NCBI GenBank assembly: GCA_012523575.1
Contig: JAAYIF010000025.1
Location: 128 to 64,127, forward strand
Source: Clostridia bacterium
Lineage (GTDB): Bacteria; Bacillota; DTU086
Direction of reading: 5' to 3'
Length of the DNA: 64,000 nt
A program made the translations under genes and the position numbers. The notes under the pieces were generated by a model that had not been told where the DNA came from, made no database searches, and saw only the letters and a program-made list of their open reading frames with translations. Shown here piece after piece: positions 42,700 to 56,497 of this stretch (the stretch's first letter is position 1; each line of letters opens with the position of its first letter).

Positions 42700-44409
42700 T
42701 TAGAGCACCTTTAAGGCCTTGATGGAAAAATAGTAGCTCAGTTTTTCCTCTCCGTTTTTGAAGGGGTCTTTTTCCATGATCTTTTTTATGCGCTCCAATC
42801 GGTATTTTACCGTATTGGGATGAATAAAGAGGGTTTCGGCAGTTTTGTTTATATTTTCGCCGCAGTCCAGATAGGTTTCCATGGTTTTTAGCAGCTCACT
42901 GTTGTGATTGGCATCATATTCAATGAGTTTTTGTAATTTCTTCCGGCAGCTATCCTTAAGTTTCTCATTGCCAAATGTGAGAAGAAGGGAATATATCCCC
43001 AGTTCCTGATAATCAAAAATTCCACTGCCCCCCTTTATCCTCCAACCTATTTCCAGGGCCTGCTCCGCATGATGAAAGCTTAGGGGAAAATCAGTAATTT
43101 TACTGCACAGGCTGCCAATACCAATGGAAACGGGTATATTTTCCAGTTCCTCTTCAACTTCCTTTTGGATCTCCTGGGCTAATCCGTAGAGTAGTGTTTT
43201 AACCTCACTTTGTTTTACATCATTTGGAATGTTCTGGAGAACTATAACCCTTTCTCCCTTGGGTATAGTCACACTTTTTTTGCTGAACCTTTTCACCGCA
43301 AAATCAACGGCATTATGCAGTCTGTCCTTAACCAGCTGGACGATCCAATAATTCTCCTGCAGATACTTTAGGTAGATCTCCTCATAATTATCAATTTCAA
43401 CTATTAAAACCACATATTTCCCCTCAAGGTCCAAACCCCTCTGCTCTGCTCTCCGGATTATGGCTTCTTCGCTGCTGTAGTTTCTGCTTAAAAGGTCATC
43501 AATAAATTCTAAATTCAATTGTTCCTCCACTTTTTTTACCGCAAGGTTTTTGGAAATCTCCAAAGCAACGGCAGTCCCCGTATGGGTAAGTAGCATTTCT
43601 AGATGGCATTCTTCGGTTTCCTGGGGTTCCGGAAGAACCACATACCCGTAAGAGGTAGTGCCCATAAATACGGAAACGACAATAATTTCCTCTCTGCCGT
43701 CAAAGGCGGAAACACGGGAAAATTTTATGTTAAGCTTCCCCTCATCGATAATTCTTTTATCCGGAAAGTCCCGCCCTGCGTATTCTTGCAATACTGCCTC
43801 CACTTCTTTTCTGAAAATCAAAGGGTCGTAATGGGGGTGCTGGACTTCAGCAACAATGTGTCCCGTACCGTCGGCAATAACAACGGGTTTTTTTACAACT
43901 TCCCTTAAAGATTCGGCAATTCCCTTAAAACCGCCCCCGGCAAGGAGCATATTGGTAAGGTATCTGTTTAATTCCTGGGACCTCTCCAGCATAATCTTTT
44001 GTTTGTCCAGTATGGCTTCCATTACAGTGGTTAAAACACTGCTATAGGGAATGCTTTTGGGAAGAATGAGTATGGGAAAATTGAGTTCTTCCGCCAGGGC
44101 ATAGGCATGATCGTCCAGAAAAACTTCCTGCTTATTGCCCGGATGCACCGCCAGAGCCGCCGAACCTGCATCTTTCAAATCCCTGATAAGCTGGTAAACC
44201 TGATCTTTTTTTTGAAAAGCGCTGAGGGCTGTTAGGTAAAGCTCTCCCCCCTGGAGCCACTGCTGATAAAGCTCCACCTCCAGCACGCTTACGGTTTCGA
44301 TAATATTGGACAGTCCATTACGCCCTGCTTTAAGAATAACCCCATGACCCTTAAGTAGCTCCAAAGCTTCGTTGACAGTTATACCGTTCAATGTCCGCAC
44401 CTCTGCCAA
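42700..44409 (-). CDS. PucR-family transcriptional regulator
   Basis: N-terminal PucR domain (WLQGGELYLT); C-terminal LLKTMETYLDCGENINKTAETLFIHPNTVKYRL. Confidence 0.92.
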   Translation of the reverse strand: MAEVRTLNGITVNEALELLKGHGVILKAGRNGLSNIIETVSVLEVELYQQWLQGGELYLTALSAFQKKDQVYQLIRDLKDAGSAALAVHPGNKQEVFLDDHAYALAEELNFPILILPKSIPYSSVLTTVMEAILDKQKIMLERSQELNRYLTNMLLAGGGFKGIAESLREVVKKPVVIADGTGHIVAEVQHPHYDPLIFRKEVEAVLQEYAGRDFPDKRIIDEGKLNIKFSRVSAFDGREEIIVVSVFMGTTSYGYVVLPEPQETEECHLEMLLTHTGTAVALEISKNLAVKKVEEQLNLEFIDDLLSRNYSSEEAIIRRAEQRGLDLEGKYVVLIVEIDNYEEIYLKYLQENYWIVQLVKDRLHNAVDFAVKRFSKKSVTIPKGERVIVLQNIPNDVKQSEVKTLLYGLAQEIQKEVEEELENIPVSIGIGSLCSKITDFPLSFHHAEQALEIGWRIKGGSGIFDYQELGIYSLLLTFGNEKLKDSCRKKLQKLIEYDANHNSELLKTMETYLDCGENINKTAETLFIHPNTVKYRLERIKKIMEKDPFKNGEEKLSYYFSIKALKVL

Positions 44410-44494
44410 TCCCCTCTTTTTTATGAATTGAACGCTTTTTCTAAGAATTCTTTAAAAAACAAAAAACCTCCTTCTCCGCAAAAAAGCTGCCAAT

Positions 44495-44521
44495 AAAAAA
44501 GTGCGGCAATTGACGCCGCAC
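44495..44521 (-). terminator. Terminator after hydantoinase B
   Basis: GTGCGGC-N7-GCCGCAC with an A6 run on the left (U-tract on the minus strand). Confidence 0.7.
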
Positions 44522-44539
44522 CTCTTTTTTGATTATTAA

Positions 44540-46321
44540 TTACCCTCTTCTGCTTCTCTCTACCCTAAGCTTTTTGGTTTTTTCCTCATCCACTGTCAGG
44601 GTTTCTTTATCTATTATAACCCCATAATCCCTTTCCGCCTCTTCTGCGGTAATAATTTCATCCTTAACATCCCGCAGAACCTTTTCCACAGGCCGCTCCA
44701 GAGGATCACCGTAGCCGCCGCCGCAGCCGCTAATAAACCTCACCAAATCCCCCTTGCGCATGGGATAATTGGAAAAGGTAGCCCCCACCACAGGTTCTGA
44801 ACCGTCAGCGGGGTGCACCTCAACGATGTTGGGAGAACCATCCTTGCCCCCGGCAAATCCCCAGGGCGGGAATTGATGCCTGCTGACGATGGTGGTCAGT
44901 TCGGCATTGGAATTAAGGAGACGATAATCCCTGATAAGGCCGCAGCCGCCCCTAAATTTCCCGGCACCGGTGTTTAAATTAAAGGCAAACTGTTCCACAA
45001 TAATGGGGTATTTGTATTCAGCCACTTCTGCCGGTATAACAAAGGTTTCTCCGTCGGCAATGGCCACCAGCCCGCTTTCACCGTCTTTATTGTATCCTGC
45101 TCCCCAACCTCCGGCCTGGGGCTCACAGAGTACGAAGGGCTGTTTGGTTTTATCGTCAATACCCGCAAGGATAGTTCCGATAATGCTTAAGAAATGACCC
45201 GCGGTGATCCTTTCGGGTATAGCGGGAGCCAAAGCCTTAGCCACCAGGTCCGTTATGTGAGACGTAGCCTCCCAGTTAGTAGACACAGGGGCAGGGCGCA
45301 CTGCATTAAAAACGCTTCCCTCCCTGGTAATAACTTTAACGGGAGAATAAAAACCTTCGTTGGGTTCAGCGTCGGGGTTTACCAAAGCGTGATAAATAAT
45401 TCTCCCAGCGGAGTAGGCTCCGTATTTTGTGCAGTTAATGGGAGCGGGTACCTGATCCCCGGATTCCGTAAGGTCAATAATGAAGCTGTCGTCGGTTATG
45501 GTCACCTTTGCCTTTATATAAACGTTTTCCACATTATTGGCCTGGGCATCAATGTAGCTGTCTGCTTCAAAGGTTCCTTTGGGCATTTTGGCAAGCTCTT
45601 TAAGGGCTAGCTTTCTTCCGTTTTCCAGAATCCAATCAATGCTTTCCAGCACCGCATCCCTGCCGTACCTGTCGAAAAGCTCCAGCACCCGCTTTTCCGC
45701 AATACGTAGGGATGCTGTCTGGGCGTAAAGATCTCCCAGGGTCATATCGGGAGTCCTGCAGTTGGCAGCAATCATGTCCCTAACTGCTTCATTGAGCTTA
45801 CCCTCATCATAAACCTTAATTACGGGAAACTGCAGACCCTCCTGGTATATTTCCGTGGCGTTGGTAGACCAGCTTCCCAAATTCTTGCCGCCTATCTCAT
45901 TCCAGTGCCCCTTGTTGGCAGCAAAGGCCACCAGTTCCCCTTTGTAAAAGATGGGAAGCACTGCGGAAACGTCACATAGGTGGGTTCCGCTTCCCGTATA
46001 GGGATCATTGGTAAGAATTATGTCCCCCGGTTTCAAATTTTCTGGGCCGAACTTTTCCAGCACAGAGGCAACGGAAAAGGTAATGGCTCCCATAAAGCCC
46101 GTAACCCCGTTGGCCTGCCCAATGAGGTTGCCCTTTGCATCGGTAAGGCCGCAGGAATAGTCCAAAACTTCATAAATAATGGTACTCTGGCTTGTCCTTC
46201 CCCAGGTATAGAACATTTCCTCAGCAGCAGCAATGAGCCCCTGGGCAATATTTTCCCTGGTAAAGGGATCAACCTGCCCCTTCTTATAAGCCCTTTCCTG
46301 TATTTTTAAACTTTCCTTCAT
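44540..46321 (-). CDS. Hydantoinase B/oxoprolinase-family subunit
   Basis: IIYEVLDYSCGL, NDPYTGSGTHLCD, GHWNEIGG, GAGKFRGG, GGGYGDP. Confidence 0.92.
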   Translation of the reverse strand: MKESLKIQERAYKKGQVDPFTRENIAQGLIAAAEEMFYTWGRTSQSTIIYEVLDYSCGLTDAKGNLIGQANGVTGFMGAITFSVASVLEKFGPENLKPGDIILTNDPYTGSGTHLCDVSAVLPIFYKGELVAFAANKGHWNEIGGKNLGSWSTNATEIYQEGLQFPVIKVYDEGKLNEAVRDMIAANCRTPDMTLGDLYAQTASLRIAEKRVLELFDRYGRDAVLESIDWILENGRKLALKELAKMPKGTFEADSYIDAQANNVENVYIKAKVTITDDSFIIDLTESGDQVPAPINCTKYGAYSAGRIIYHALVNPDAEPNEGFYSPVKVITREGSVFNAVRPAPVSTNWEATSHITDLVAKALAPAIPERITAGHFLSIIGTILAGIDDKTKQPFVLCEPQAGGWGAGYNKDGESGLVAIADGETFVIPAEVAEYKYPIIVEQFAFNLNTGAGKFRGGCGLIRDYRLLNSNAELTTIVSRHQFPPWGFAGGKDGSPNIVEVHPADGSEPVVGATFSNYPMRKGDLVRFISGCGGGYGDPLERPVEKVLRDVKDEIITAEEAERDYGVIIDKETLTVDEEKTKKLRVERSRRG

Positions 46322-46325
46322 TTCC

Positions 46326-48380
46326 TTACACCCCCGTATGAATTATCAAGTTCCCGTATTCATCCACTTCCAAAGTCTGGCCGGGATACACTATGGTAAC
46401 GGATTTGGATTCCTCTACGGCTGCAGGCCCTTCAATCACATGACCCGGTCCCAGCTTTGTCCTGTCGTATACCCTACTCTTCAGCCTGCCCTGTTCGTCA
46501 AAGTCAATGATTCTTTCCCCTTTAACAGCAGCTTCAAGGGCACCTGCAGGAGGCATTTTCTTAATTTCCGGCTTTTTAACGGTTCCAAAGGCTGTGAGGT
46601 TGAAGTTGACAAATTCAGCAGGAGCATGTTCCAAGCTGAAGGTGTAGTGCTGATGGTGAAGCCTGTCAAAGGCCTTCCTTATTTCACTAAGGTCCTCCTC
46701 CCTTACTTCACCGCTGCCCACCGGTGTCCTCACAGTGTGTTCCTGGCCGATATAGCGCAGATCAGCAGTCTTTACGAATATAACATCCTCAGGTGAAATG
46801 CCCTGCTTTTGGTAAATGGCCAGGGCTTCCTCTTCCATTTCCCTGTAAATTTCATTAACCCTCTTAAGATCGCAGCCGTCCACGGGCATGATCTGTGTCT
46901 GTACAAAGTCCTGGCGGAGATCCGTCATGAGCATGCCCCATGCGGAAAAGGTAGCTGGCATGTTGGGGACAATGAGCTTGCCCACCTTGAGTTCCGAAGC
47001 CAAGAACGGTCCGTGTACGGCACCGTTTCCGCCCATGGCTACCATGACGAAATCCCTGGGATCATAACCCCTGCGCACGGAAATCAGCTTCAGGGCATTG
47101 AGCATGTTGTTGTTGGCAATCTTTATAACTCCAAGGGCTGCTTCCTCAATGCTGATCCCGAAATGACGGGCAATGGGTTCCATGGCTTTCTCCGCCAGTT
47201 CCCGTTTTATCTTGAACTCCCCGCCCAGGAAGCTGTCGGGATCGATTCTTCCGGCAATGAGGTTGGCATCGGTTAGTGTGGGGTTCGTTCCTCCCAGACC
47301 GTAGCAGGCAGGTCCCGGAACAGCCCCGGCACTCTGGGGACCTACTTTTAAAACTCCCACTTCATCTATCCACGCAATGCTTCCCCCGCCGGCGCCTATC
47401 TCAATGATGTCCACGATAGGCATTTTTACGGGATAACCCGCAAATTTTGGCGTCCACTCCAGTTTATAATCAGTGGTAATTTTCACCTCGCCCTTGTTTA
47501 TAAGGGATGTTTTTGCAGTGGTGCCGCCTATGTCAAAGGTTATGATGTTGTCCTCCCCGATGATTTTCCCCAGAGCAGCTGCCCCTATAACGCCTCCCAC
47601 GGGGCCGGATTCAATGAGGTTGATGGGAACTTCCTTTGCCCTGGCGAAGGTTGCCGTTCCACCGTTGGAAAGCATGGCATGGGGTTCAATGTACAGATTC
47701 ATTTCCCCCAGCCTCATCTTTAACCTGTCCAAATACCTGGCCGCAGCGGGCTTCACATAGGCATTGAGCACCGTAGTGCTGGAGCGCTCGTATTCCCTCC
47801 ACTCCTTGATCAAATCAGAAGAAATGGTTATCTCCACTCCCGGCAGTTCCCTGGCGAGAATTTCCCCTACCATCTGCTCATGACGGGGGTTTGCGTAAGA
47901 GTGCAGGAGGCATACTGCCACTGCATCTACATTTTCTTTTTTAATTTTTTTGGCTACTTCCACAACGTCTTCTTCAGAAAGTTCCTTTAGAACCTCTCCC
48001 TTGTAGTTGAGACGCTCGTCCACCTCAAACCTCAGGTAGCGGGGCACAAAGGGCTCCGGTTTTTTATAGAAATAATTGTAGAGATCAGGTCTGTTGGCCC
48101 TTCCGATCTCCAGGGCATCCCTGAAACCCTTTGTGGTTACCAGAGCAGTTTTTGCCCCCTTTCTTTCCGTTACCGCATTGATAACCACCGTTGTTCCGTG
48201 AACAAAATAGGCTGTTTCCGAGAGATCAACCCCTGTTTTGGCCACTGCGTTGATGACTCCGTCAGCAAAGTTTTCCGGAGTGGTGTGGGCCTTTTCTTCA
48301 ATGAGAGCTCCGGTTTCCTCCTCCAGACAGACAATGTCCGTAAAAGTACCTCCGATGTCCACAGCTATTCTGTAGCTCAT
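46326..48380 (-). CDS. Hydantoinase A/oxoprolinase-family ATP-binding subunit
   Basis: DIGGTFTD, HGTT, EYERSSTT, ESGP, DIGGTT, IGAGGGS, SAGAVPGPACY. Confidence 0.93.
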   Translation of the reverse strand: MSYRIAVDIGGTFTDIVCLEEETGALIEEKAHTTPENFADGVINAVAKTGVDLSETAYFVHGTTVVINAVTERKGAKTALVTTKGFRDALEIGRANRPDLYNYFYKKPEPFVPRYLRFEVDERLNYKGEVLKELSEEDVVEVAKKIKKENVDAVAVCLLHSYANPRHEQMVGEILARELPGVEITISSDLIKEWREYERSSTTVLNAYVKPAAARYLDRLKMRLGEMNLYIEPHAMLSNGGTATFARAKEVPINLIESGPVGGVIGAAALGKIIGEDNIITFDIGGTTAKTSLINKGEVKITTDYKLEWTPKFAGYPVKMPIVDIIEIGAGGGSIAWIDEVGVLKVGPQSAGAVPGPACYGLGGTNPTLTDANLIAGRIDPDSFLGGEFKIKRELAEKAMEPIARHFGISIEEAALGVIKIANNNMLNALKLISVRRGYDPRDFVMVAMGGNGAVHGPFLASELKVGKLIVPNMPATFSAWGMLMTDLRQDFVQTQIMPVDGCDLKRVNEIYREMEEEALAIYQKQGISPEDVIFVKTADLRYIGQEHTVRTPVGSGEVREEDLSEIRKAFDRLHHQHYTFSLEHAPAEFVNFNLTAFGTVKKPEIKKMPPAGALEAAVKGERIIDFDEQGRLKSRVYDRTKLGPGHVIEGPAAVEESKSVTIVYPGQTLEVDEYGNLIIHTGV

Positions 48381-48433: not shown

Positions 48434-49525
48434 CTAAACTTCCACCAGCTCCCTGGGGAAATTGTTCAATCGCACGGGTCCCCGGTCCGTTACCGCCACA
48501 ATATCTTCAATGCGGATCCCGAACCTCTGGGGAATGTAAATTCCCGGTTCCACACTGAATACCATGCCCTTTTCTAAGGAAACCTTGCTGCCCTCCACTA
48601 TGTAGGGCTCCTCATGGTAGTCAAGGCCTATGCCGTGGCCGGTGCGGTGGATAAAAAACCGCCCGTATCCTGCCCGGTCAATTACCTCCCGGGCAGCCCT
48701 GTCCACGTCCCCGCACAAAGCCCCGGTGACAGCGGCCCTGTATCCCGCCTCATTGGCTTCCATGACTATCCTGTAAATCTCCTTTTCCTCGTTACCCGCC
48801 TTGCCCACAAAGACAGTCCTGGTTATATCGGAGCAGTAGCCTTCCAATACTGCCCCAAAATCCAGCACCACTAAATCTCCCTTTTCTATATTCCTGTCTC
48901 CGGGAATGTGGTGGGGCATGGCGCCATTGGGGCCAGAAGCCACTATGGGCTTAAAGGATATATCATCGGCACCCTTTTCCTTGATTTTTCTCTCAATAAA
49001 ATGCGCCAGCTCCAGCTCGGTCATCCCCACGGAAATTTCCTTCAAAACTTCCCCCATCACTTCATCCGCCAGTTCCCCTGCCTTTTTTAAGCATCTGAGT
49101 TCTTCTTCATCCTTTATGGAGCGCACCTTTCCCAAAAGCTCTCCTGCGTCCACAAAGGTGCAGTCTTTGAAAGTTTCCATGAGCCGCAGAAGATGACCCG
49201 CCCACAGCTTGGGATCCACCGCAGCCCGTCCCTTTATGGTTCCGCAGGCTTCACGAACCGGCTCCATGGGGTCCTGCTGATCCGCCCAGGTGAGAAGCTC
49301 AAAACCCTCTCCCAAATCGGAAGCGGCCTCTTTATACATCTCCGGCAGCACAAGGAAAAGGGGACCTTCCCGGGACAGTACCGCCAGCTGTAGGCGTTCA
49401 TCCAAAGTGGTTTTTACCCCGGTTAGATAAAAGATATTGGATGAAGGTGCGGTAAAAAGGCATTGGATGTCCCTTTCCTCCATCAGCTCCCGCACCCGTT
49501 TAACCCTATTTACATAAACTTCCAT
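48434..49525 (-). CDS. M24-family Xaa-Pro peptidase (prolidase/aminopeptidase P)
   Basis: Full metal-ligand set: DFG, SDITRT, HRTGHGIG..HE, EPGIY, RIED; ATG 49525. Confidence 0.9.
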   Translation of the reverse strand: MEVYVNRVKRVRELMEERDIQCLFTAPSSNIFYLTGVKTTLDERLQLAVLSREGPLFLVLPEMYKEAASDLGEGFELLTWADQQDPMEPVREACGTIKGRAAVDPKLWAGHLLRLMETFKDCTFVDAGELLGKVRSIKDEEELRCLKKAGELADEVMGEVLKEISVGMTELELAHFIERKIKEKGADDISFKPIVASGPNGAMPHHIPGDRNIEKGDLVVLDFGAVLEGYCSDITRTVFVGKAGNEEKEIYRIVMEANEAGYRAAVTGALCGDVDRAAREVIDRAGYGRFFIHRTGHGIGLDYHEEPYIVEGSKVSLEKGMVFSVEPGIYIPQRFGIRIEDIVAVTDRGPVRLNNFPRELVEV

Positions 49526-49545
49526 GCTTTCACCCCTAAAAACCC

Positions 49546-50328
49546 TTACTCTTCCCACAGCCCTTGAAAGCCATACTGTTCTTCCAGTCCCCATTCCTTG
49601 ATTTCCCGGACCGGAGGCGTCTCATATCCCCCTACTTTACTGGTGTACCAGCCAAAGCGATCCCGAAGATTCACAAGAAATTCAGCGTATTTGAAGGGGG
49701 CAAGGACAACATCCACCACCGGCACACCCAGGCTATCCTGAAGCTCTTTGTAGAAGCCGAACTGAACGGTGCATCCCAGCACTATCACTTCCGCCCCGTC
49801 CTCTTTTACGGCCTTTTCAGCTTCTTCCTTAAGCCTCTTTTCGGTAAATTCTTCATCAGCGTGAAACTCCAGAACCCCCAGGTCCAAGGAACGGAAGGAA
49901 GCAAGCCTATCCCTATGTCCGTACTTGAACACATTCCTACGCATGGCGGGGATCCATTTTCTCCTACCAACGATGATGGAAAAGGTATCCCCTAAAGCTG
50001 CTGCTATGTTAAGGGCGGATTCCGCCGGCGCCGTTACCACCATCCTTTCACAAATCTCCCTGGCCTCCCTAAGGAAGGGGTCATAAAAGCATCCTATTAC
50101 AGCTCCGTCATAGCCTTCCTTTTCCGCTTTTTTAATTAAATTTAAAAGATCCCAGGAAACAAGGGCTTCATAATAATGATATTCCAGATGATGGGGTCCC
50201 CTTTCTAGGGAAACCACGTCCACTTCGGTGTCATCCTCTTTGGCACTGTTTAAATAATCCAAAATAAGCCGGTCCCAGCTGCTGTGCCCCACTGGATTGA
50301 TAAAGAGTATGCGTTTTTTACTGTTCAT
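49546..50328 (-). CDS. Asp/Glu/hydantoin racemase-family protein
   Basis: INP N-terminus and two catalytic-type cysteines (GCFYDP, LGCT). Confidence 0.85.
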   Translation of the reverse strand: MNSKKRILFINPVGHSSWDRLILDYLNSAKEDDTEVDVVSLERGPHHLEYHYYEALVSWDLLNLIKKAEKEGYDGAVIGCFYDPFLREAREICERMVVTAPAESALNIAAALGDTFSIIVGRRKWIPAMRRNVFKYGHRDRLASFRSLDLGVLEFHADEEFTEKRLKEEAEKAVKEDGAEVIVLGCTVQFGFYKELQDSLGVPVVDVVLAPFKYAEFLVNLRDRFGWYTSKVGGYETPPVREIKEWGLEEQYGFQGLWEE

Positions 50329-50376
50329 GGTAATTCCTCCTTTGTTCCTGCAGAAAAACCAAACCTATACTTTATC

Positions 50377-50578
50377 AGACGGTCGAGAATCATCTTAAGA
50401 ATTCCCACGGGGTTCTGTGGCGGTTTGCGAGCGACTTAACGACCGCCGGCTAAAACCGGGAGGTGCGAGCAGAAGATGAGCGCCAGCCCCAGTTTCTCGC
50501 ATGGACGTCGAATTTAGAGATGTCCGTCGTGAGTTCGCAAGTCAAGAAAACCGCAGCAGACACCCTTTGTCAACAAGC
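50377..50578 (+). mobile_element. MITE-like element copy 2, inside the catabolic operon
   Basis: Shares GACTTAACGA, CGCCGGCTA, AAAACCGGGAGG, GCGCCAGCCCCA, CGTGAGTTC and the terminal TTTGTCAACAAGC with copy 1 (reverse complement). Confidence 0.7.
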
Positions 50579-50597
50579 TGACTTCATTCCAATTAGA

Positions 50598-51590
50598 CTA
50601 ACCGTATAGGTGGCACCTTACAAAATGCCCCGGCTCAGCCTCCACCATCTCAGGATCAACCTCCATGCAAACTTCCCGCTTCTCAGGGCACCTCAGGTGA
50701 AAACTGCACCCCGGTGGAACATTAACCGGTGAAGGAATTTCCCCGGTGGAAACCACCTTTTTAGGCTTCAGCTCCTCCTCTTCCTCAGAAACCACAGGAA
50801 TGGAAGAAAGGAGCATTCGGGTGTAGGGATGAAGGGGTGCTTGGAAAAAGTCCTCCGTAGGAGCAGTTTCACATATTTTACCCAGGTACATAATTGCCAC
50901 CCTGGTGGCAATGTTCCTCATAAGGCTTAAATCATGGGTAATGAAAAGATAGGTCAGCCCCTTTTCCTCCTGAAGCTTAAGAAGCATATTGATAATCTTT
51001 GCCTGAATGGAAACGTCAAGAGCAGAGGTGGGCTCATCCAGGATCACAAACTGGGGATCCGTAGCCAGAGCCCGTGCTATGGAAATCATCTGTCTTTCCC
51101 CGCCCCCCATAGAAGCTGGAGATTTATGCATGTAGTTGGGGGGAAGTTCCACCATTTTAAGCAGCTGGACAATTTTTTCTTCTAAACCGTTTTTACTGGC
51201 AATTTTGTGAACCCTAAGGGGCAGTTCCAGTATCTGTCGAACATTCTGTCTGGAGTTCAAAGAAGACCCCGGATCCTGAAAAACAATCTGCAGATCCTTT
51301 TTTATGGAAAGGGAACGCTTAGCGCTGGGCATGCTTATATCCTGTCCTTGGAAAATAATCTTGCCTTCCGTTGGAGGATACATTCCCATTACCGTGTAAG
51401 CCAGGGTGCTCTTCCCGGAGCCCGATTCCCCCACCAGGCCCATTATTTCACCCCTTTTTACTTTAAGGCTCACACCGTCCACAGCCTTGACAAAAAGGGG
51501 CTTGCCTTCCGCTTTTCCCACGGAGAAATAGGTTTTAAGATTTTGTACCTCAAGAATTGTTTCTGTTAATGTTAATGCATCACCGCTCAT
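50598..51590 (-). CDS. Oligopeptide/dipeptide ABC transporter ATPase (OppF/DppF-like)
   Basis: GESGSGKST, GGGERQ, LDEPTSALD, HPYT, GCSFHLRC. Confidence 0.93.
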   Translation of the reverse strand: MSGDALTLTETILEVQNLKTYFSVGKAEGKPLFVKAVDGVSLKVKRGEIMGLVGESGSGKSTLAYTVMGMYPPTEGKIIFQGQDISMPSAKRSLSIKKDLQIVFQDPGSSLNSRQNVRQILELPLRVHKIASKNGLEEKIVQLLKMVELPPNYMHKSPASMGGGERQMISIARALATDPQFVILDEPTSALDVSIQAKIINMLLKLQEEKGLTYLFITHDLSLMRNIATRVAIMYLGKICETAPTEDFFQAPLHPYTRMLLSSIPVVSEEEEELKPKKVVSTGEIPSPVNVPPGCSFHLRCPEKREVCMEVDPEMVEAEPGHFVRCHLYG

Positions 51591-52588
51591 TATATCACCC
51601 CCTGCACCTTAAAACAGGCTACCTGGTGTCCATCTCCCACATCCTTTAACAGGGGCTTTTCCTCACGGCACTTTTCTTCCGACAGCCTGCACCTGGGATG
51701 GAAACGGCAGCCTTTGGGGGGAGAAAAGTAATCGGGAATACGGCCGTAAATACCCTCGGCTACCCCGCCCCCGGTAAGCCTGGGAACGGATTCTAAAAGA
51801 CCCAGGGTATAAGGATGAAGAGGATTTTTAAAAAGCTCTTTGGTCTCTGCGGTCTCCACAATATTGCCCGCATACATAACATATATCCTGTCGGTCATCT
51901 CCCGGGCAACACCCAAAGAATGGGTAATCATTATCAGTGACATTCCTTTCTTTTCCACCAAGCCCCTTAAGAGCCTGTGCACCTGGTCCAGAATGGTAAC
52001 ATCCAGGGATGTTCCCGGTTCATCGGCGATCAATAGCTCCCTTTCTGTCACAATAGCCATGGCAATACAGATTCTCTGCTTCATACCGCCGCTAAGCTGA
52101 CCGGGATAGCTGTTCAATATTCTTTCGGGGTCAGGTATGTAAACCTCCCCAATGGCTTTAACGGCAAGCTCCTTAATCTCTTCCTTGCTCCTTCCCTTCC
52201 CGCTATCCGAATATCTGATTACATCAAACATTTGGGTTCCAATGGTAAAAACGGGATTTAACGCAGCTGCGGGCTCTTGAAAGATCATGGAAATCCCCTG
52301 GGTGCGCACTTTGTTTAACTTTTGGGGCTTCATCTTTAAAATGTCTTCCCCGTGATAGAAAATTTCCCCTTTGGGGACAACGGCATTCTCGGGTAGAATC
52401 CTGAGCACTGTTCGCATGGTGGTGGTCTTTCCGCAACCCGCTTCTCCCACCAGTCCCACCTTTTCACCCTTTCCGACCCATAGGTTTACACCGTCCAGCA
52501 CCTTGGCAAAGCCATCATAGGTACGGTAGTGCACATGGAGATCCTTTATATTAAGAATAGAGTCATTTTTATTCACGATCATACTCAC
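51590..52588 (-). CDS. Oligopeptide/dipeptide ABC transporter ATPase (OppD/DppD-like)
   Basis: GEAGCGKTT, LSGGMKQR, ADEPGT, HPYT, GCRFHPRC. Confidence 0.93.
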   Translation of the reverse strand: MSMIVNKNDSILNIKDLHVHYRTYDGFAKVLDGVNLWVGKGEKVGLVGEAGCGKTTTMRTVLRILPENAVVPKGEIFYHGEDILKMKPQKLNKVRTQGISMIFQEPAAALNPVFTIGTQMFDVIRYSDSGKGRSKEEIKELAVKAIGEVYIPDPERILNSYPGQLSGGMKQRICIAMAIVTERELLIADEPGTSLDVTILDQVHRLLRGLVEKKGMSLIMITHSLGVAREMTDRIYVMYAGNIVETAETKELFKNPLHPYTLGLLESVPRLTGGGVAEGIYGRIPDYFSPPKGCRFHPRCRLSEEKCREEKPLLKDVGDGHQVACFKVQGVI

Positions 52589-53486
52589 CCTTTGCCATCA
52601 TATCGCGTATTCCGTCCCCCATAAGGTTAAAGCCCAGTATAGTAACGGCAATGGCCAGGGATGGGAAAACAGTCATCCACCAAAGATCGGGCATATAGCG
52701 GGTCCCGTCTGAAACCATCTGGCCCAAAGCGGGGGTGGGAGGCTGCTCTCCTAACCCCACAAAGCTTAAGGAAGCTCCGATGAGGATAACCCATCCTACG
52801 TCCAGAGCCATTTTTGTAAAAATGGGCGAAAGACAGTTGGGCAGTATTTCCCGGAAGATAATGTGAAGTCTCCCGGCCCCAATAAGCTCTGACGCCTTGA
52901 CAAAATACTCATTGCGCGTGGAAGTGGCCATTCCGTAAACAAGCCTCGTATACCACGGCCACCACATAACGGTAACGGCAATCATTGCGTTGGTGAGATT
53001 GGGCTTTAGTACCGCTGCAATGGCCAAAGCCAGAAGCAGCGGAGGCACCGAAAGAAATATATCCGTAACCCTCATGATAACCGTATCCAAAAAAGTACCC
53101 TGGTAGTATCCGGCAATGAGCCCTAGGAAAACCCCTATGGGCACGGCAATGGCCAGAACCAGCGCCGCCATATAAAGGGCTCCCCGGAAAGCAAAAATTA
53201 TCCTGGAAAATATATCCCTGCCGAAATTATCCGTACCGAACCAGTATTCGGCGCAGGGAGCAGTACCGGCATTGGCATAGTCCACAAATTTCCCCGCATG
53301 GTGAGGATAGGGAACAATTAGAGGTGCAAAAATGGCCGAAAAAACTATAATGAGGACAATAATAAGCCCCACCACAGACAGCTTATTGCGGGAAAATTTA
53401 TACCAATTCTTTTTTACCCCTGATTTTACCCTTACGGAAAAAGATAGAGCAGGTACTTCCTGTTTTGACTGAACGCTTATGTTCAT
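52569..53486 (-). CDS. Peptide ABC transporter permease (OppC/DppC-like)
   Basis: FGTDNFGRDIFSR, EAA-like loop YFVKASELIGAG. Confidence 0.92.
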   Translation of the reverse strand: MNISVQSKQEVPALSFSVRVKSGVKKNWYKFSRNKLSVVGLIIVLIIVFSAIFAPLIVPYPHHAGKFVDYANAGTAPCAEYWFGTDNFGRDIFSRIIFAFRGALYMAALVLAIAVPIGVFLGLIAGYYQGTFLDTVIMRVTDIFLSVPPLLLALAIAAVLKPNLTNAMIAVTVMWWPWYTRLVYGMATSTRNEYFVKASELIGAGRLHIIFREILPNCLSPIFTKMALDVGWVILIGASLSFVGLGEQPPTPALGQMVSDGTRYMPDLWWMTVFPSLAIAVTILGFNLMGDGIRDMMAKGEYDRE

Positions 53487-54508
53487 GAGCTTCTTCCTCC
53501 CAATCGAATCCGCGGATCTAAGTAGGCCACAATCAAATCCACAAGAATATTTACCAAAACGAAAATTAACCCAAAAACAATGATGACAGCGGAAATGGCG
53601 TTGAGATCCTTCCGCAGCATAGCTTCCATTCCGTAGCGGGAAATACCCGGCCAGTTGAAGATCACTTCCACCAAAAAGGCATTGCTCATCAAAGAGGCAA
53701 TGTCAAGCCCCATTACCGATACCGCAGGGATTAAAGAAGGCTTAAGAAGATACTTACCCGTAATTACATGATCGGGCATGCCAAATCCCACCGCTGCAGC
53801 CAGATAATCCTTACCCATGTTCTCCGTCATGGCAGAACGAACTATCCGTGCTTCCTGAAACAGAGGCCCCACGGCCAGAGCCAGGGCAGGTAAAATAAGG
53901 TGCTTTAAAGCATCAAAGAAAACGTCCAACTGCCCGGTCAAAAGGCTGTCTATGGTAATCAGCCCCGTTATGGTGGGAGGCGGCTGTATCCCCGCGCTCA
54001 GGCGTCCCAATACGGGAATAATCGGCCAGATATATCCAAAAAGAAGCAGAAAAATCACCGCCAGCACAAAGGAAGGAACGGCCACTCCCGTATACGCCAT
54101 TACTCTAATAAAGCTATCCACCCACGTATCCTTGTATCGGGCAGCCAGAGCTCCGAAAAAAATAGAAAAAACAATCACAAATAATGCCGACACAAGTACC
54201 AATTCCAGGGTTGCGGGAAGAAATTCCGCAATATCTTCCACCACATTTCGCTTAGTAATCAACGACTTTCCCAGATCCCCCGTGGCAACCCCTTTGATCC
54301 AATAGAAGTACTGAACGGGCAGGGATTTGTCAAGATGCATTTCTTCCCTCAGGGCATCCACGGCAAACTGAGGAGCCCTGGGTCCCAAAGCCAATCTTGC
54401 GGGATCCCCAGGAACCACCCGGGCAATAATGAAAATCACAATGGACAGTCCCAAAAGGACGAAAATTGAATAAAGAAGTCTTTTTATCACATAAGAGCTG
54501 AGTTTCAT
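53483..54508 (-). CDS. Peptide ABC transporter permease (OppB/DppB-like)
   Basis: PGDPA, GDLGKS, PATLEL, VEVIFNWPGI. Confidence 0.92.
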   Translation of the reverse strand: MKLSSYVIKRLLYSIFVLLGLSIVIFIIARVVPGDPARLALGPRAPQFAVDALREEMHLDKSLPVQYFYWIKGVATGDLGKSLITKRNVVEDIAEFLPATLELVLVSALFVIVFSIFFGALAARYKDTWVDSFIRVMAYTGVAVPSFVLAVIFLLLFGYIWPIIPVLGRLSAGIQPPPTITGLITIDSLLTGQLDVFFDALKHLILPALALAVGPLFQEARIVRSAMTENMGKDYLAAAVGFGMPDHVITGKYLLKPSLIPAVSVMGLDIASLMSNAFLVEVIFNWPGISRYGMEAMLRKDLNAISAVIIVFGLIFVLVNILVDLIVAYLDPRIRLGGRSS

Positions 54509-54552
54509 ATAACCACCCCATTCGCGTCTCCGGCATTAGCTACAAGAAAATC

Positions 54553-54590
54553 CGAGGGTGGCTTCCCCAAAGCCCTCGGGGAAACCACCC
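54553..54590. other. Intercistronic stem-loop between the solute-binding protein and permease genes
   Basis: GGGTGGCTTCCCC / GGGGAAACCACCC stem; overlapping alternative CCGAGGG / CCCTCGG stem. Confidence 0.55.
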
Positions 54591-54608
54591 CTTAAGAAAC
54601 CATAACAA

Positions 54609-56273
54609 TTACTGGGGAATCCGATCGGGATACACTTTGAAATCGCGGAAATAGAACATATATCCCATCACCGGAGTTACAGGCTCATCCTTTTTAATCC
54701 TTTCGGCAGCGGGCCACATTACGTAATCAGCCTGATATGCCCGCTTTTCAGCCTGATCAAAGGCCCAAATGGTGGGAGCCAGATCTACAATCTTCTTCTG
54801 GATGGCACCGTACTTAGGCAAACGCTCCTCAAAATTGATGGTGCCGATGGCATCCTCGATCATTGCATCCAGCTCCTTATCCTGCAGCCACTCGCACTGC
54901 TCCCATGTTCCCGTGGATTTTGAATGGTAACGGGATTCGAATATGGTACCCGCCTCACCGTAATGGGGTGAAACAAATACCAGGCTTGCATTGGGAGTAC
55001 TCTCGGGCTTAGCAATTTGATCCACAAAGGACAGCCATGGAACCTTCACAACATCCACGTTAATTCCCAGTTCCTGAGCGTTGGACTGGAGCATAAGGGC
55101 AACCTTTTCCTCATCGGGTACTTCCGCTATCCACGCCAGCTCCACGGTATATTGATCAAGACTTCCCGCATACTTGGACTTTGCCAGCTCCTCCTTGGCT
55201 TTCTCCAGGTTCTGCTCAAAGACGGTAAGATCCTTGCTGAAGCCCGGCAAACTCTCGGAAATTGGCCCCACAGTCTTCTTGCATCCCGGGAACAAGCTGT
55301 TTACCGCAGTATCATAATCAAAGAGGTATGTTAGGGCTTTGCGGAAATGCACATCATCAGTGGGTGCCTTTTTGGTATTGAGCATGATGTTGAGAATGGT
55401 ACCTGTAAAGGCAGCATTGACTTCCACACCCTCAATGTTGTCCAAAGCTTCAAGGGCTTCCTTGGTCTGCCACTGGTCTGTGATTTCCAGCTCCCTTCTA
55501 GTCATAAGGGTCCTAATGGTAGAAGGAGATGTGGTGCCAATGATCTTGAAAGCCTCGGGAGCATCTTCCTCCCAACCACCCCAATAATCATCAAACTTCA
55601 CTGCATAAAGGTATTCCTGCTTCTTCAGTTCCTTAACCATGTAGGGGCCGCTGCCCGCATCGTTGGTTATGAGCCATTCTTTACCGTAATCACCCATTTC
55701 ACCGTATGGCCCATCTCCCAGATTGGATACAACCTGCTCTTTGTTCAGAATATAAAGCCTTACCAGGGTCTGCAAAAACGGTCCAAAGGGTTTTTTCAGC
55801 TTAAACTGCACCGTATAATCATCAAGGGCCTTTACGTCCTCCACCACTTCTGTGAACAAATAGGCGTAGCCCTCTCCCATGGTAAGCATTCTCTCCATGG
55901 AGAAGACCACGTCTTCGGCGGTAAGCTCATCACCGTTGTGGAATTTAACTCCCTTTCTCAGGTTAAAGGTCCATGTGAGCCCATCGCTGCTGGTTTCCCA
56001 GTCGGTAGCAACCCAAGGTTTTACACTTCCATCGTGGTCCGGGAAAACCAAGGTATCGTAAATATTGACCAGGGCTATGGAACTGGCATAATCGGAACCC
56101 ACTCCGGGATCTATATTGGGAACATTGGCCTCACTGATGCGTATAATTCTTTCTCCCCCCTGGCTTGTTCCTTCCTGATCACCGCCTCCGCCGCATCCCG
56201 CAAGGACAACCGCTGTAAAAAATACCAGGGCGATCATCGCAGCCAGCTTTTTATGCTTAACAAGATTCCCCAT
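54609..56273 (-). CDS. ABC solute-binding lipoprotein, family 5 (peptide/nickel type)
   Basis: Lipobox LAGC, NIYDTLV, TFNLRKGVKFHNG..TAEDVVFS, GSGPY; ATG 56273. Confidence 0.92.
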   Translation of the reverse strand: MGNLVKHKKLAAMIALVFFTAVVLAGCGGGGDQEGTSQGGERIIRISEANVPNIDPGVGSDYASSIALVNIYDTLVFPDHDGSVKPWVATDWETSSDGLTWTFNLRKGVKFHNGDELTAEDVVFSMERMLTMGEGYAYLFTEVVEDVKALDDYTVQFKLKKPFGPFLQTLVRLYILNKEQVVSNLGDGPYGEMGDYGKEWLITNDAGSGPYMVKELKKQEYLYAVKFDDYWGGWEEDAPEAFKIIGTTSPSTIRTLMTRRELEITDQWQTKEALEALDNIEGVEVNAAFTGTILNIMLNTKKAPTDDVHFRKALTYLFDYDTAVNSLFPGCKKTVGPISESLPGFSKDLTVFEQNLEKAKEELAKSKYAGSLDQYTVELAWIAEVPDEEKVALMLQSNAQELGINVDVVKVPWLSFVDQIAKPESTPNASLVFVSPHYGEAGTIFESRYHSKSTGTWEQCEWLQDKELDAMIEDAIGTINFEERLPKYGAIQKKIVDLAPTIWAFDQAEKRAYQADYVMWPAAERIKKDEPVTPVMGYMFYFRDFKVYPDRIPQ

Positions 56274-56478
56274 GATTACTCTCCCTTCTGTATAGAATAA
56301 AAAACCGGTCAAAAATCCATTGCAGCCCTAATCCTTGGAGCTCACCCCCCCGTAAAACTAAATCATCAAATTTCACCACTTTACAGCACTAAACGACTTA
56401 AAACAAATACAATTTTAGTATCTTCGTTATTTAAGCAGTTTCAACCTTTATATAAAAAATACAAACATCTAAAAAAAA

Positions 56479-56497
56479 ATTGTCCAAAATGGACAAT
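56479..56497. promoter_or_regulatory. Candidate PucR-family operator
   Basis: Perfect inverted repeat ATTGTCCA-AAA-TGGACAAT (TTGTCC-N5-GGACAA) ~200 bp upstream of the SBP start. Confidence 0.6.

Follow-up and report, generated by a model that had tools for sequence, protein, structure and literature searches.

We identified a ten-gene cluster in a 64,000-nucleotide window (the whole stretch of DNA analysed) from a Clostridia bacterium and, with somewhat better than even confidence, we read it as serving the catabolism of 2,5-diketopiperazines that contain proline, cyclo(Xaa-Pro). The cyclic-dipeptide idea is supported by five independent lines of sequence evidence, namely the recurrence of the gene set, the signature residues of its racemase, the presence of cyclodipeptide oxidase (CDO) homologues, the subfamily of its M24 peptidase and the additional genes of sister clusters. 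A first-pass annotation had proposed that either proline-containing diketopiperazines or pyroglutamyl peptides are imported and opened; the first option gained from the racemase, CDO, M24 and sister-gene evidence, while the second lost ground to the transporters of related operons.

Organization of the gene cluster

Ten co-oriented open reading frames (ORFs) on the minus strand fill positions 42700-56312 of the window, as first annotated, with spacers of -20 to 269 nt. Domains were assigned by a Pfam search of the cluster ORFs. The products are a lipoprotein SBP, two permeases, two ATPases, a racemase, an M24 peptidase, HyuA, HyuB and a PucR regulator, and the catalytic residues of the enzymes are all intact. 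The SBP gene (54609..56273; SBP_bac_5, 3.8e-72) most likely starts at 56273, which is Met14 of an ORF listed to 56312 and is preceded by an AGGGAG site. A consensus scan placed a promoter-like site, TTGAAA-16-GATACT, 5' of this gene at 56417..56444 as a pattern match only, near a terminator-like hairpin of the upstream gene (56478-56498). The spacer between the SBP and permease genes contains a strong hairpin with a T-rich tail (54555..54591; 17 bp, 9 GC); it probably acts in attenuation or stabilisation and would yield excess SBP transcript. Next come permeases of the DppB/OppB type (53483..54508; BPD_transp_1_N and BPD_transp_1) and the DppC/OppC type (52569..53486; OppC_N and BPD_transp_1), followed by ATPases of the DppD/OppD (51590..52588) and DppF/OppF types (50598..51590), each with ABC_tran and oligo_HPY domains. 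The importer is thus of the peptide type, in agreement with the first-pass annotation.

The transporter genes are parted from the enzyme genes by a 269-nt spacer (50329..50597) that had neither an Rfam match nor a significant fold (z = 0.44) and may contain an internal promoter. The enzyme genes encode the racemase (49546..50328; Asp_Glu_race, 3.1e-35), a prolidase-type M24B metallopeptidase (48434..49525; Creatinase_N and Peptidase_M24), HyuA (46326..48380; Hydant_A_N, Hydantoinase_A and Hydant_A_C) and HyuB (44540..46321; Hydantoinase_B, 7e-165). We corrected the M24 start from 49594 in the listed ORF to 49525 (its Met24), which has an AGGGGTG ribosome-binding site 5' of it and gives a protein of 363 aa that agrees with homologues and with the collection's gene call P0241; with this start, there is no overlap with the racemase gene. 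At the 3' side of hyuB, a hairpin resembling an intrinsic terminator and followed by a T7 run (44494..44521; GTGCGGC-N7-GCCGCAC in minus-strand sequence) marks the end of the structural operon; the hairpin scan listed its stem on the plus strand and the T-run was read on the minus strand. Because of this element, pucR (42700..44409; PucR N-domain, GGDEF_2 and HTH_30) is a separate transcription unit, and its product is presumed to activate the operon. A pucR gene also stands 3' of hyuB in Desulfofundulus (49-52% identity), and other lineages have HTH-cupin or AsnC regulators instead.

The organism is present in anaerobic-digester and compost metagenomes. Fragmentary metatranscriptome transcripts distributed from hyuB to the SBP gene show weak in-situ transcription, in low-depth contigs that could include DNA, and one such contig carries a 26-nt deletion variant of the 269-nt spacer.

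Racemase signature

The racemase belongs to the cofactor-independent, two-Cys hydantoin/allantoin (HYD) subfamily and, as first annotated, keeps both catalytic cysteines, Cys80 and Cys186. Where the ring substituents are bound, allantoin and hydantoin racemases have Asn/Asp12 (100%), Met17, Thr/Ser118 and Thr119, whereas OpaE, an epimerase of a ketopiperazine ring, and OpaE-like enzymes have V/I/L, Y/F/W, V/I/L and G/P (PMC12661438). The window enzyme has Val13, Trp18, Val120 and Gly121, that is, an OpaE-like hydrophobic pocket without the residues that define allantoin/hydantoin racemases. The same pattern dominates among 227 family members (93% V/I/L, 87% F/W/Y, 95% V/I and 91% G/P), none of which has Asn or Asp at position 13. 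NozR, from the same subfamily as OpaE, reportedly isomerises cyclo-Trp-Trp. We propose on these residues that the enzyme is a diketopiperazine C-alpha epimerase.

HyuAB and the M24 peptidase

HyuA and HyuB are predicted to form an ATP-dependent lactam/hydantoin hydrolase, HyuA as the ATP-binding (ASKHA) and HyuB as the metal-dependent hydrolytic subunit. The HyuA ATP motifs DIGGTFTD, DIGGTTAK and GxxPGP are invariant across the family, and in an alignment HyuB keeps the Asp/His/Asp/His metal tetrad of CapB (D41, H99, D102, H124). The bit score of HyuA is 492 with PDB 7HK5 and 383 with caprolactamase CapA, and no NCBIfam equivalog cut-off is attained. The HyuAB mechanism requires an N-H amide that can form a lactim, and the unfavourable equilibrium explains the need for ATP. 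To our knowledge, diketopiperazine hydrolysis has been described for no enzyme of this family.

The M24 protein was first annotated as an Xaa-Pro peptidase with a full metal site, and all five ligands are indeed present (D222, D233, H297, E326 and E340 in the 363-aa numbering), together with all substrate histidines (HH/H/H). Its closest solved relatives are Thermococcus sibiricus 4FKC/4RGZ and Pyrococcus horikoshii PH0974, 1WN1 (E 1e-83 to 1e-86), and sequence comparison predicts a prolidase (Xaa-Pro dipeptidase) in the same subfamily as PH0974. PH0974 is a biochemically proven strict Xaa-Pro dipeptidase that cleaves Val-, Met-, Phe-, Leu- and Ala-Pro, leaves Pro-Ala, as well as Val-Leu-Pro, essentially uncleaved and has no endopeptidase activity.

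The Creatinase_N domain of an M24 protein next to HyuAB could also suggest that creatinine/N-methylhydantoin or creatine is degraded, the M24 protein being a creatinase and HyuAB an N-methylhydantoin amidohydrolase, and a genome scan did find creatinase-like M24 genes in four proteobacterial HyuAB loci (L030, L047, L056 and L058). Those proteins read E-Q-H-H-G at the five ligand positions, whereas the window protein and all M24s of racemase clusters read D-D-H-E-E, a comparison that largely refutes the creatinase reading. The window protein scores 283-291 bits with the Thermococcales enzymes versus 61 with creatinase 1CHM and 73 with ectoine hydrolase; the window lacks creatinine deaminase, carbamoylsarcosine amidase and sarcosine oxidase/reductase; and a racemase would be pointless for achiral N-methylhydantoin. 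We consider creatinine degradation very improbable.

Importer and sister transporters

The SBP, with an LAGC lipobox, is a component of a cluster C (peptide/opine/nickel-type) ABC importer. It shares 67-79% identity with its counterparts in orthologous clusters, and the DppB-type permease shares 81-85% with its own. In a weak alignment with DppA (about 25% identity), Asp408 is replaced by His and the Arg355 loop is absent. We propose cyclo(Xaa-Pro) as its ligand. In Thermococcus, Eubacteriaceae and Salibacterium, NCS1 permeases take the place of the ABC importer, which favours a neutral heterocycle over anionic pyroglutamyl peptides.

This substitution bears on pyroglutamyl-peptide or 5-oxoproline salvage, in which pGlu-Pro or other pGlu-peptides would be imported, the pGlu ring opened by HyuAB and Glu-Pro cleaved by the M24 enzyme. 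Such peptides are common in heated protein, and pGlu formation is spontaneous in a thermophile. HyuAB is homologous to 5-oxoprolinases (close homologues carry that name in the source annotations), the importer is of the peptide type and PH0974 reportedly cleaves Glu-Pro at 28% relative activity. However, besides the poor fit of anionic peptides to NCS1 permeases, the racemase pocket is hydrophobic and the CDO homologues would have no role; a pyroglutamyl peptidase would suffice without ATP, and we know of no HyuAB-family enzyme that acts on peptide-bound pGlu. We therefore regard this salvage as quite unlikely.

Recurrence of the gene set

Neighbourhood conservation had been suggested as a check. 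The full set recurs in Desulfofundulus (L001/L006) and Formimonas (L002), and without the PucR gene in Desulforamulus ruminis (L086), in all three with a gene order shuffled relative to the window; partial sets occur in Anaerolineae, Bipolaricaulota, Paracoccaceae, a haloarchaeon and Thermococcus. Since it recurs across several bacterial phyla and in Archaea, the arrangement is not due to chance. Formimonas HyuA, HyuB and racemase are 78%, 83% and 70% identical to those of the window. Conservation of the peptidase had been set in advance as a test, and M24 was found in six lineages, namely Desulfofundulus (63% identity), Formimonas (55%), Thermococcus (47%), Natronorubrum (44%), Desulforamulus (40%) and Anaerolineae (39%), and in 9 of the 13 racemase-anchored metagenome loci (12 kb or longer) that contain HyuAB. 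The cyclic-dipeptide proposal thus withstood this test, as did all of its parts that could be checked by computation. The Thermococcus orthologue (508 bits to 4FKC) sits in an operon of a cupin gene followed by HyuA-HyuB-M24-NCS1. Across all 27 metagenome loci of this length that were anchored on the racemase, the ABC type of the cluster and a HyuAB or HydA-like/DUF917 pair were each found in 21, M24 in 13, CDO in eight and a Pro_racemase-family gene in six. M24 or the racemase is missing in many related loci, and the composition of the module is flexible.

The joint presence of these genes may also be a loose juxtaposition, in which a dipeptide importer and prolidase serve linear Xaa-Pro peptides beside an unrelated lactamase/racemase pair acting on some heterocycle, or else a biosynthetic or modifying cluster. 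Consistent with juxtaposition, Desulfosporosinus orientis has HTH-cupin, cupin, M24 and peptide ABC genes with neither HyuAB nor racemase nearby, HyuAB stands alone in Moorella, and the 269-nt spacer parts transporter from enzyme genes. But the SBP of D. orientis, at just 28% identity, belongs to a different transporter, and HyuAB-M24 adjacency recurs, in three domains or phyla, with three transporter solutions. The related loci that we annotated showed no CDPS or NRPS, and the importer, peptidases and amino-acid catabolic genes argue for catabolism rather than biosynthesis. We judge this reading to be improbable as well.

Genes of sister clusters give a further indication of the substrate. 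In Formimonas, the orthologous cluster has an extra gene pair whose closest solved homologues are AlbA (1.3e-28) and AlbB (1.6e-4), a cyclodipeptide oxidase, and pairs of this type are found in 15 of 80 racemase loci. Accessory hydrolases are PepT-like M20 peptidases, which score above the TIGR01883 cut-off and only 45 bits with the carbamoylase model. Pro_racemase-family and FAD-dehydrogenase (D-amino-acid-dehydrogenase-like) genes adjoin the clusters of Bipolaricaulaceae (L088), Salibacterium (L073) and several metagenome loci, and a Pro_dh gene lies 3' of M24 in Anaerolineae (L007). These links come from relatives: the window itself has no CDO, small cupin or proline-catabolic gene.

Such genes also bear on a hydantoin-type pathway, modelled on the ATP-dependent hydantoinase hyuAB of Pseudomonas sp. 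NS671. Here 5- or N-substituted hydantoins (e.g., a proline bicyclic hydantoin) would be imported, racemised and opened, and the M24 enzyme would replace a carbamoylase by decarbamoylating N-carbamoyl-proline or another N-carbamoyl amino acid. N-carbamoyl-Pro does resemble Xaa-Pro and is isosteric with amidino-sarcosine, which creatinase, of the M24 fold, cleaves; prolidases, however, require a free alpha-amino group, which N-carbamoyl-Pro lacks, and 5-substituted hydantoins are rare in nature. The family names HyuA/HyuB favour this pathway, as do the terms 'hydantoin racemase' and 'allantoin racemase' in source annotations; N-methylhydantoinase is the label of the closest solved HyuAB relative, and the NCS1 family transports hydantoins and allantoin. 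The association of CDO, racemase and ABC genes was first read as CDO-like enzymes acting on hydantoin/allantoin-like rings, but AlbAB homologues, where characterised, are specific for the diketopiperazine scaffold (PMC11055893). Against hydantoins, the racemase lacks Asn/Asp12 and the Thr118/Thr119 pocket, and the M24 protein is prolidase-like with full metal ligands. In agreement with the first-pass annotation of the cluster, there is no carbamoylase or carbamoylsarcosine amidase, nor other amidase, among ORFs of at least 150 aa in the 64 kb, and a carbamoylase is not recurrent among about 170 related loci, where the accessory hydrolases are peptidases. We find the hydantoin pathway unlikely; the OpaE-type signature, the AlbA/AlbB homologues and the PepT-like peptidases in place of carbamoylases point to diketopiperazines.

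Proposed pathway

For cyclo(Xaa-Pro) catabolism, we infer the substrate, regiochemistry, ATP requirement and regulatory logic as follows. The neutral cyclic dipeptide would be imported by the lipoprotein SBP and the DppBCDF-like ABC transporter. The two-Cys racemase would interconvert D/L stereoisomers at a ring C-alpha, which would let D-containing diketopiperazines, whether heat-epimerised or microbial, join the L,L pool. The ring amide, as its lactim tautomer, would then be activated by HyuA with ATP and hydrolysed at the HyuB metal site; the Pro-C(=O)-NH-Xaa amide is the only secondary, lactim-capable one, so ring opening would yield H-Xaa-Pro-OH. The Xaa-Pro imide bond resists general dipeptidases, and the dedicated M24 prolidase would split this product into Xaa and proline. 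Proline as a product is suggested by the Pro_racemase, D-amino-acid-dehydrogenase-like and Pro_dh genes of sister clusters and by the M24 subfamily shared with PH0974. PucR, from its own transcription unit, would presumably activate the operon. We know of no description so far of a breakdown route like the one proposed here for this thermophilic anaerobe, with ATP-driven opening of proline cyclic dipeptides and cleavage of the Xaa-Pro product.

Organization of the cluster and its surroundings

The first-pass annotation had described a run of ten co-oriented genes, and all ten were recovered on the minus strand at 42700-56312. Pfam and NCBIfam searches assign them, in order of transcription, to an SBP_bac_5 substrate-binding protein (SBP), a DppB-type permease, a DppC-type permease, two oligo_HPY ATPases, a racemase of the Asp/Glu/hydantoin family, a peptidase with Creatinase_N and M24 domains, HyuA, HyuB and a PucR-family regulator. 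As no cluster protein reaches an NCBIfam equivalog cut-off, none is orthologous to a named enzyme. The most likely start of the SBP gene is 56273, with AGGGAG ahead of it; its product has a lipoprotein signal (terminal LAGC) and a 17-bp hairpin lies 3' of the gene. The M24 gene starts at 49525, 20 nt past the racemase stop and preceded by an AGGGGTG ribosome-binding site, and its product is 363 aa, the same in all homologues and in the collection's own gene call. The pucR gene had been read as part of the cluster. It is present and co-oriented, with the N-terminal PucR domain, GGDEF_2 and C-terminal HTH_30 all detected by Pfam, but a GC-rich hairpin and a T7 run stand 3' of hyuB, between the two genes, and pucR is therefore a separate transcription unit. 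Consensus scans of the region for promoters and terminators gave matches at background frequency, and reporting is limited to single sites that are plausibly placed. Between the ATPase and racemase genes lies a 269-nt spacer that has no Rfam match and no significant fold; within it, 26 nt (window 50488-50515) are missing in one metatranscriptome contig, a difference probably due to strain variation.

Outside the cluster, the window consists of normal chromosomal DNA from a spore-forming anaerobe of the Bacillota, with GerA, a glycolytic operon, RNase R, a tmRNA gene (18523-18872, minus strand, 210.8 bits), a PrkC-like kinase and FtsW/PBP. A TwoAYGGAY RNA motif is found at 6474-6631 (minus strand, 69.5 bits), and a Dam-like D12 methyltransferase and, after it, the full set HsdM, HsdS and HsdR of a type I restriction-modification system occupy 6881-13106 (plus strand). 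Directly upstream of the cluster, an ORF at 56571-57428 (minus strand) matches the Fe-ADH N-domain only from profile position 76 onward and looks 5'-truncated or disrupted. Further along, at 61080-63314 (plus strand), an HTH-cupin regulator adjoins an AMP-binding acyl-CoA synthetase-like gene; this regulator has 26% identity to the one heading the Formimonas version of the cluster and is probably unrelated to the cluster studied here.

The racemase has an OpaE-like pocket signature

Alignment to the Klebsiella allantoin racemase KpAllR upholds the earlier description of a two-Cys racemase: Cys80 and Cys186 align with KpAllR Cys79 and Cys184 and are conserved in 226/227 and 227/227 family members, respectively. 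Pocket positions were numbered with the Klebsiella residues Cys79, Cys184, Met17 and Thr118/119 and the OpaE residues Ile20 and Phe25 as anchors. Allantoin/hydantoin racemases have Asn/Asp12 (in 100%), Met17, Thr/Ser118 and Thr119, of which Asn/Asp12, Thr/Ser118 and Thr119 form a polar pocket for the hydantoin or ureido group, while the OpaE-like pocket consists of V/I/L20, Y/F/W25, V/I/L131 and G/P132 (PMC12661438). At these positions the window racemase has Val13, Trp18, Val120 and Gly121, that is, the OpaE-like signature, found in 93%, 87%, 95% and 91% of 227 relatives. The polar pocket is absent (Val13, Val120, Gly121), and none of the 227 relatives has Asn or Asp at position 13. OpaE epimerises a carbon in a ketopiperazine ring and NozR, of the same subfamily, isomerises cyclo-Trp-Trp. 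Both OpaE (Aspergillus ustus) and NozR (Nocardiopsis) have the two-Cys dyad in common with the window racemase, which also carries the hydrophobic signature (V/I/L, aromatic, V/I/L, G/P); however, they are biosynthetic tailoring enzymes, whereas the window racemase lies in a predicted catabolic operon. Overall similarity is modest, with 82 bits to OpaE and 95 bits to the Klebsiella allantoin racemase. Allantoin or purine catabolism, prompted by the labels 'PucR' and 'allantoin racemase', was rejected: the racemase is without the allantoin-binding residues, and no further enzyme of purine catabolism came up in a Pfam search of the window's ORFs of at least 150 aa.

The main alternative to a diketopiperazine (DKP) substrate is a hydantoin route, including one in which proline hydantoin is the substrate and the M24 enzyme serves as carbamoylase. 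Pseudomonas sp. NS671 reportedly has an ATP-dependent ring opener and a PF01177 racemase in one catabolic cluster, hyuA-hyuB-hyuC-hyuE, and both components of this classical operon recur in the window. Unlike that operon, the window has an M24 prolidase and a peptide ABC importer but no HyuC-type carbamoylase, and its racemase is without the hydantoin-binding Asn/Asp and Thr-Thr. The lack of a carbamoylase, stated from the first reading, holds: neither a carbamoylase nor an amidase was found among ORFs of at least 150 aa in the 64-kb window, and the 128 unlabelled ORFs within or close to sister clusters include no recurrent carbamoylase family. Recurrent M20 genes of the sister clusters score above a PepT-like model cut-off and only 45 bits on the carbamoylase model, and all M24s there keep their metal ligands; judged from these profiles, the accessory hydrolases are predicted to be peptidases. 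We regard the hydantoin route as unlikely.

The HyuA/HyuB pair retains both catalytic centres

HyuA contains Hydant_A_N, Hydantoinase_A and Hydant_A_C (Pfam), and its ATP motifs DIGGTFTD, DIGGTTAK and PGP are invariant in 15 family members; the family motifs are DxGGTxxD, DxGGT and GxxPGP (PMC8453981). In HyuB, all four residues of the CapB tetrad (D41, H99, D102, H124) align to identical window residues, and mutagenesis of caprolactamase has shown this Asp/His/Asp/His metal tetrad to be essential. NCBIfam scores are 553 for CapA and 292 for CapB, against cut-offs of 1000 each, and the acetophenone carboxylase (Apc) models are far below their cut-offs. In the model for the family, the A subunit activates the lactim tautomer with ATP and the B-subunit metal site hydrolyses it, the need for ATP being explained by an unfavourable ring-opening equilibrium (PMC8453981).

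The window pair thus resembles the known family (CapAB, 5-oxoprolinase, N-methylhydantoin amidohydrolase, NS671 HyuAB) in its two subunits, the ASKHA ATP motifs of A, the Asp/His/Asp/His site of B and the presumed mechanism of lactim activation followed by metal-assisted hydrolysis. It differs in the genes around it, where a prolidase, a peptide importer and an OpaE-like racemase take the place of the hyuC carbamoylase, the aminotransferase of the caprolactam pathway or the enzymes of the creatinine pathway, and in its predicted substrate, a six-membered bis-lactam; we know of no such substrate in the HyuA/HyuB family. A further comparison is with the agropinic-acid (aga) genes of octopine-type Ti plasmids, which combine a cluster-C SBP/ABC importer with a HyuA/HyuB-like lactamase proposed to open a lactam ring. 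The aga system shares with the window a peptide/opine-type ABC importer and a HyuAB-like enzyme, and the AgaA structure 6HLX is among the matches of the window SBP; its substrate, though, is a sugar-derived 5-oxoproline-type opine, and it is not known to have a racemase or a prolidase. Salvage of pyroglutamyl peptides is the next alternative, and we consider it quite improbable. CapA 'Lys40' was tried as a discriminator between oxoprolinases and other members and dropped, the alignment giving no confident mapping.

The M24 enzyme belongs with Xaa-Pro dipeptidases

The full metal site claimed for an Xaa-Pro-type peptidase is indeed intact: all five ligands (D222, D233, H297, E326, E340) are present in the window protein, as they are in all 30 M24s of the racemase/HyuAB clusters of this clade, and the prolidase-typical histidines are also kept. 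Its closest solved relatives are Thermococcus sibiricus 4FKC/4RGZ and Pyrococcus horikoshii PH0974 (E 1e-83 to 1e-86). With 283 bits to PH0974 (1WN1) and 209-214 bits to Pfprol/Phprol, and with metal and substrate residues all kept, it falls in the same M24B subfamily as PH0974 (Ph1prol/Phdpd, 1WN1/2HOW) and 4FKC (283-291 bits), while missing the NCBIfam PepQ_Arch equivalog cut-off (239 versus 630). PH0974 is a strict Xaa-Pro dipeptidase, active on Val-, Met-, Phe-, Leu- and Ala-Pro, almost inactive on Pro-Ala as well as Val-Leu-Pro and devoid of aminopeptidase or endopeptidase activity (PMC3227228, PMC2814137). Both the PH0974 and 4FKC enzymes were studied as isolated proteins, and a linkage to HyuAB is not discussed in the papers on them that we consulted. 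A Thermococcus sp. locus (L170:4931-11174) carries an operon HyuA-HyuB-M24-NCS1 with a divergent cupin gene and an AsnC-type regulator; its M24 is orthologous to the crystallised T. sibiricus enzyme and to PH0974, scoring 508 bits to 4FKC and 396 bits to PH0974. This operon suggests a physiological role for the PH0974-type 'second prolidase' paralogue.

Two other pathways that use M24 proteins were weighed. Creatinase (1CHM) scores 61 bits against the window M24, whose metal ligands are retained, so that it is not creatinase-like; M24s beside proteobacterial HyuAB genes are creatinase-like, with E-Q-H-H-G at the ligand positions. On this metal-ligand test, together with the absence of partner enzymes among ORFs of at least 150 aa, a creatinine/creatine pathway was rejected, and we treat the creatinine route as essentially excluded. 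Ectoine degradation, which pairs the M24 protein DoeA with an EutA-like racemase, was rejected on scores of 73 bits for DoeA versus 291 bits for prolidases.

A peptide-type importer with a possibly altered ligand site

The importer, composed of an SBP_bac_5 protein, two BPD_transp_1 permeases (OppC_N type) and two oligo_HPY ATPases, is of the cluster C, DppBCDF type, and does not reach the NCBIfam equivalog cut-off for DppA, OppA, NikA, GsiB or CntA. In E. coli DppA, Asp408 binds the peptide ammonium and Arg355 the carboxylate. In an alignment at about 25% identity, the Asp408 column has His in the window protein (among cluster SBPs, 17 have H, 10 have D and the remainder have other residues) and none of the 43 cluster SBPs retains the Arg355 loop. 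Although the alignment is weak, the His and the missing loop would fit an uncharged ligand.

A proposed route for proline-containing diketopiperazines

Taken together, these parts suggest a route for cyclo(Xaa-Pro). In such a DKP, the Pro-C(=O)-NH-Xaa amide alone bears an N-H and could form a lactim; its hydrolysis would yield H-Xaa-Pro-OH, a prolidase substrate. By this regiochemical reasoning, we infer that cyclo(Xaa-Pro) would be opened to Xaa-Pro. Diastereomers containing D-residues arise readily by heat epimerisation, and the racemase would feed these into the pathway. We propose that the window exemplifies a pathway, widespread but undescribed, by which proline-containing DKPs are catabolised in an ATP-dependent manner, ranging across anaerobic Bacillota, Bipolaricaulota, Chloroflexota, Thermococcales, haloarchaea and Alphaproteobacteria, and consider this joint claim evenly poised between right and wrong.

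Conservation and variation of the gene set

The nearest relatives of the cluster proteins are from 'Clostridia bacterium 41_269' (94%) and Desulfofundulus (86%). Near-identical DNA was found in anaerobic-digester and compost metagenomes, and low-depth contigs running from hyuB through the SBP gene in one digester metatranscriptome; evidence for expression, drawn from this single low-depth dataset, is thin. The neighbourhood was expected to be conserved, and this is what we observe: the same gene set is present in Desulfofundulus luciae, D. thermosubterraneus and Formimonas warabiya (the latter without the pucR gene), Desulforamulus ruminis has it without pucR and reordered as HyuA-HyuB-cupin-M24-ABC-racemase, and parts of the set are found in a haloarchaeon, Anaerolineae, Paracoccaceae and Thermotogae. 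A genome scan anchored on HyuA returned mainly paralogues that are distantly related (39-50% identity), adding a single new close relative. Far more informative was a racemase-anchored metagenome scan, which gave 80 loci, labelled by similarity to a reference set. Among the 27 of these that span at least 12 kb, this ABC type is present in 21 and a ring opener also in 21 (HyuAB in 13 and a HydA-like/DUF917 pair in 10, some loci having both), an M24 gene in 13, a nitroreductase/DUF6092 pair in eight and a Pro_racemase-family gene in six. The peptidase, whose lack of conservation would have counted against the first reading, is conserved in homologous clusters, with M24 in 9/13 HyuAB-containing loci of this set. 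Composition does vary among relatives, and the genes could be loosely juxtaposed or the substrate some other heterocycle; with the conservation just described, we find this unlikely too.

Proline-catabolic genes adjoin the clusters independently in three places: a Pro_racemase-family gene with a two-component FAD dehydrogenase in Bipolaricaulaceae and several metagenome loci, a Pro_racemase-family gene with a DAO-type dehydrogenase in Salibacterium, and Pro_dh directly 3' of M24 in an Anaerolineae genome. Thermococcus, Eubacteriaceae and Salibacterium have an NCS1 permease instead of the ABC importer; the NCS1 family carries neutral heterocycles. These proline and NCS1 links, like the cyclodipeptide oxidase link, are all drawn from relatives of the window cluster.

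Several other features recur in these loci. In Natronorubrum halalkaliphilum (L014, 4154-19510) there are two HyuAB pairs, one adjoining an M24 gene (44% identity) and the other followed by a racemase (52% identity) and an ABC importer, an arrangement suggesting that the system has moved between domains. From Thermococcus to Bacillota, HyuAB/M24 genes are accompanied by a gene for a small Cupin_2 protein of about 107-116 aa (L001:9632-9982, L086:2817-3140, L002:906-1244, L013:9644-9982, L170:4361-4684, L171:9625-9960), which could be an accessory subunit or sensor; tblastn found no such gene in the window. Beside the same racemase, a second module recurs (L087:10788-16049 and L088:10784-16078; also L090, L094, L095, L097-L099, L110 and L113) that consists of a HydA-like ATPase (about 531 aa), DUF917/S-Me-THD, a small ORF of 83-92 aa, an M24 and a second DUF917. 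This module may offer another ATP-dependent way of opening the ring; in its M24, the DDHEE ligands are retained and Q/R-R replaces the HH pair. Finally, members of a protein family (about 350 aa) that matches nothing in Pfam or NCBIfam are found in 14 racemase/cyclodipeptide oxidase loci (L094:561-1610, L103:10934-11983, L105:11108-12175 and 11 further loci).

Cyclodipeptide oxidase genes in related clusters

Between its racemase and M24 genes, the orthologous Formimonas cluster (HyuA 78%, HyuB 83% and racemase 70% identity) carries two additional ones, whose best solved homologues are AlbA (1.3e-28) and AlbB (1.6e-4), the two subunits of cyclodipeptide oxidase (CDO). An AlbA/AlbB-like pair is present in 15/80 racemase loci. 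A survey of CDO operons found that 88% are without a cyclodipeptide synthase (CDPS) and that 'hydantoin racemases', DUF917, peptide ABC transporters and peptidases are over-represented in these, a pattern that it attributed to hydantoin/allantoin metabolism or an unknown biosynthesis, proposing no DKP catabolism (PMC11055893). Such non-CDPS clusters, which occur in anaerobes and Thermococcus and also contain DUF917, share with the window a PF01177 'hydantoin racemase', dipeptide/oligopeptide ABC transporters and peptidases (PMC11055893). The Formimonas orthologue is one of them, whereas the window cluster is without CDO genes, and neither HyuAB nor prolidase was highlighted in that survey. Because of the racemase signature, the accessory peptidases and the NCS1 transporters, we favour the opposite reading, on which these CDO-operon neighbours would act on DKPs.

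Implications

DKPs are abundant, both as microbial signals and antibiotics and as spontaneous products in heated, aged or digested protein, and they resist ordinary peptidases. Knowledge of how they are degraded is scant, according to the only dedicated survey (PMC3852281). Full-text literature searches found no link between HyuAB and DKPs; the parts of the cluster all come from known families, while their combination and predicted substrate are undescribed in the literature searched.

If the proposal is true, HyuAB, or the HydA-like/DUF917 pair of sister clusters, would represent the first 'DKP lactamase', the OpaE-like racemases would act as DKP epimerases in catabolism, and both the orphan non-CDPS CDOs and the 'second prolidase' of Pyrococcus and Thermococcus would gain a physiological role. 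A defined gene set would make the question directly testable in carriers available in culture, namely Desulforamulus ruminis, Desulfofundulus thermosubterraneus and Thermococcus. Thousands of proteins labelled 'hydantoinase', 'allantoin racemase' or 'Xaa-Pro aminopeptidase' would receive a function, the synthase-less majority of CDO operons would be recast and enzymes would become available for removing or stereo-inverting DKPs. Confirmation would put a name to a widespread pathway and reassign many annotations, and would explain how proteolytic thermophilic communities recover proline from DKPs.
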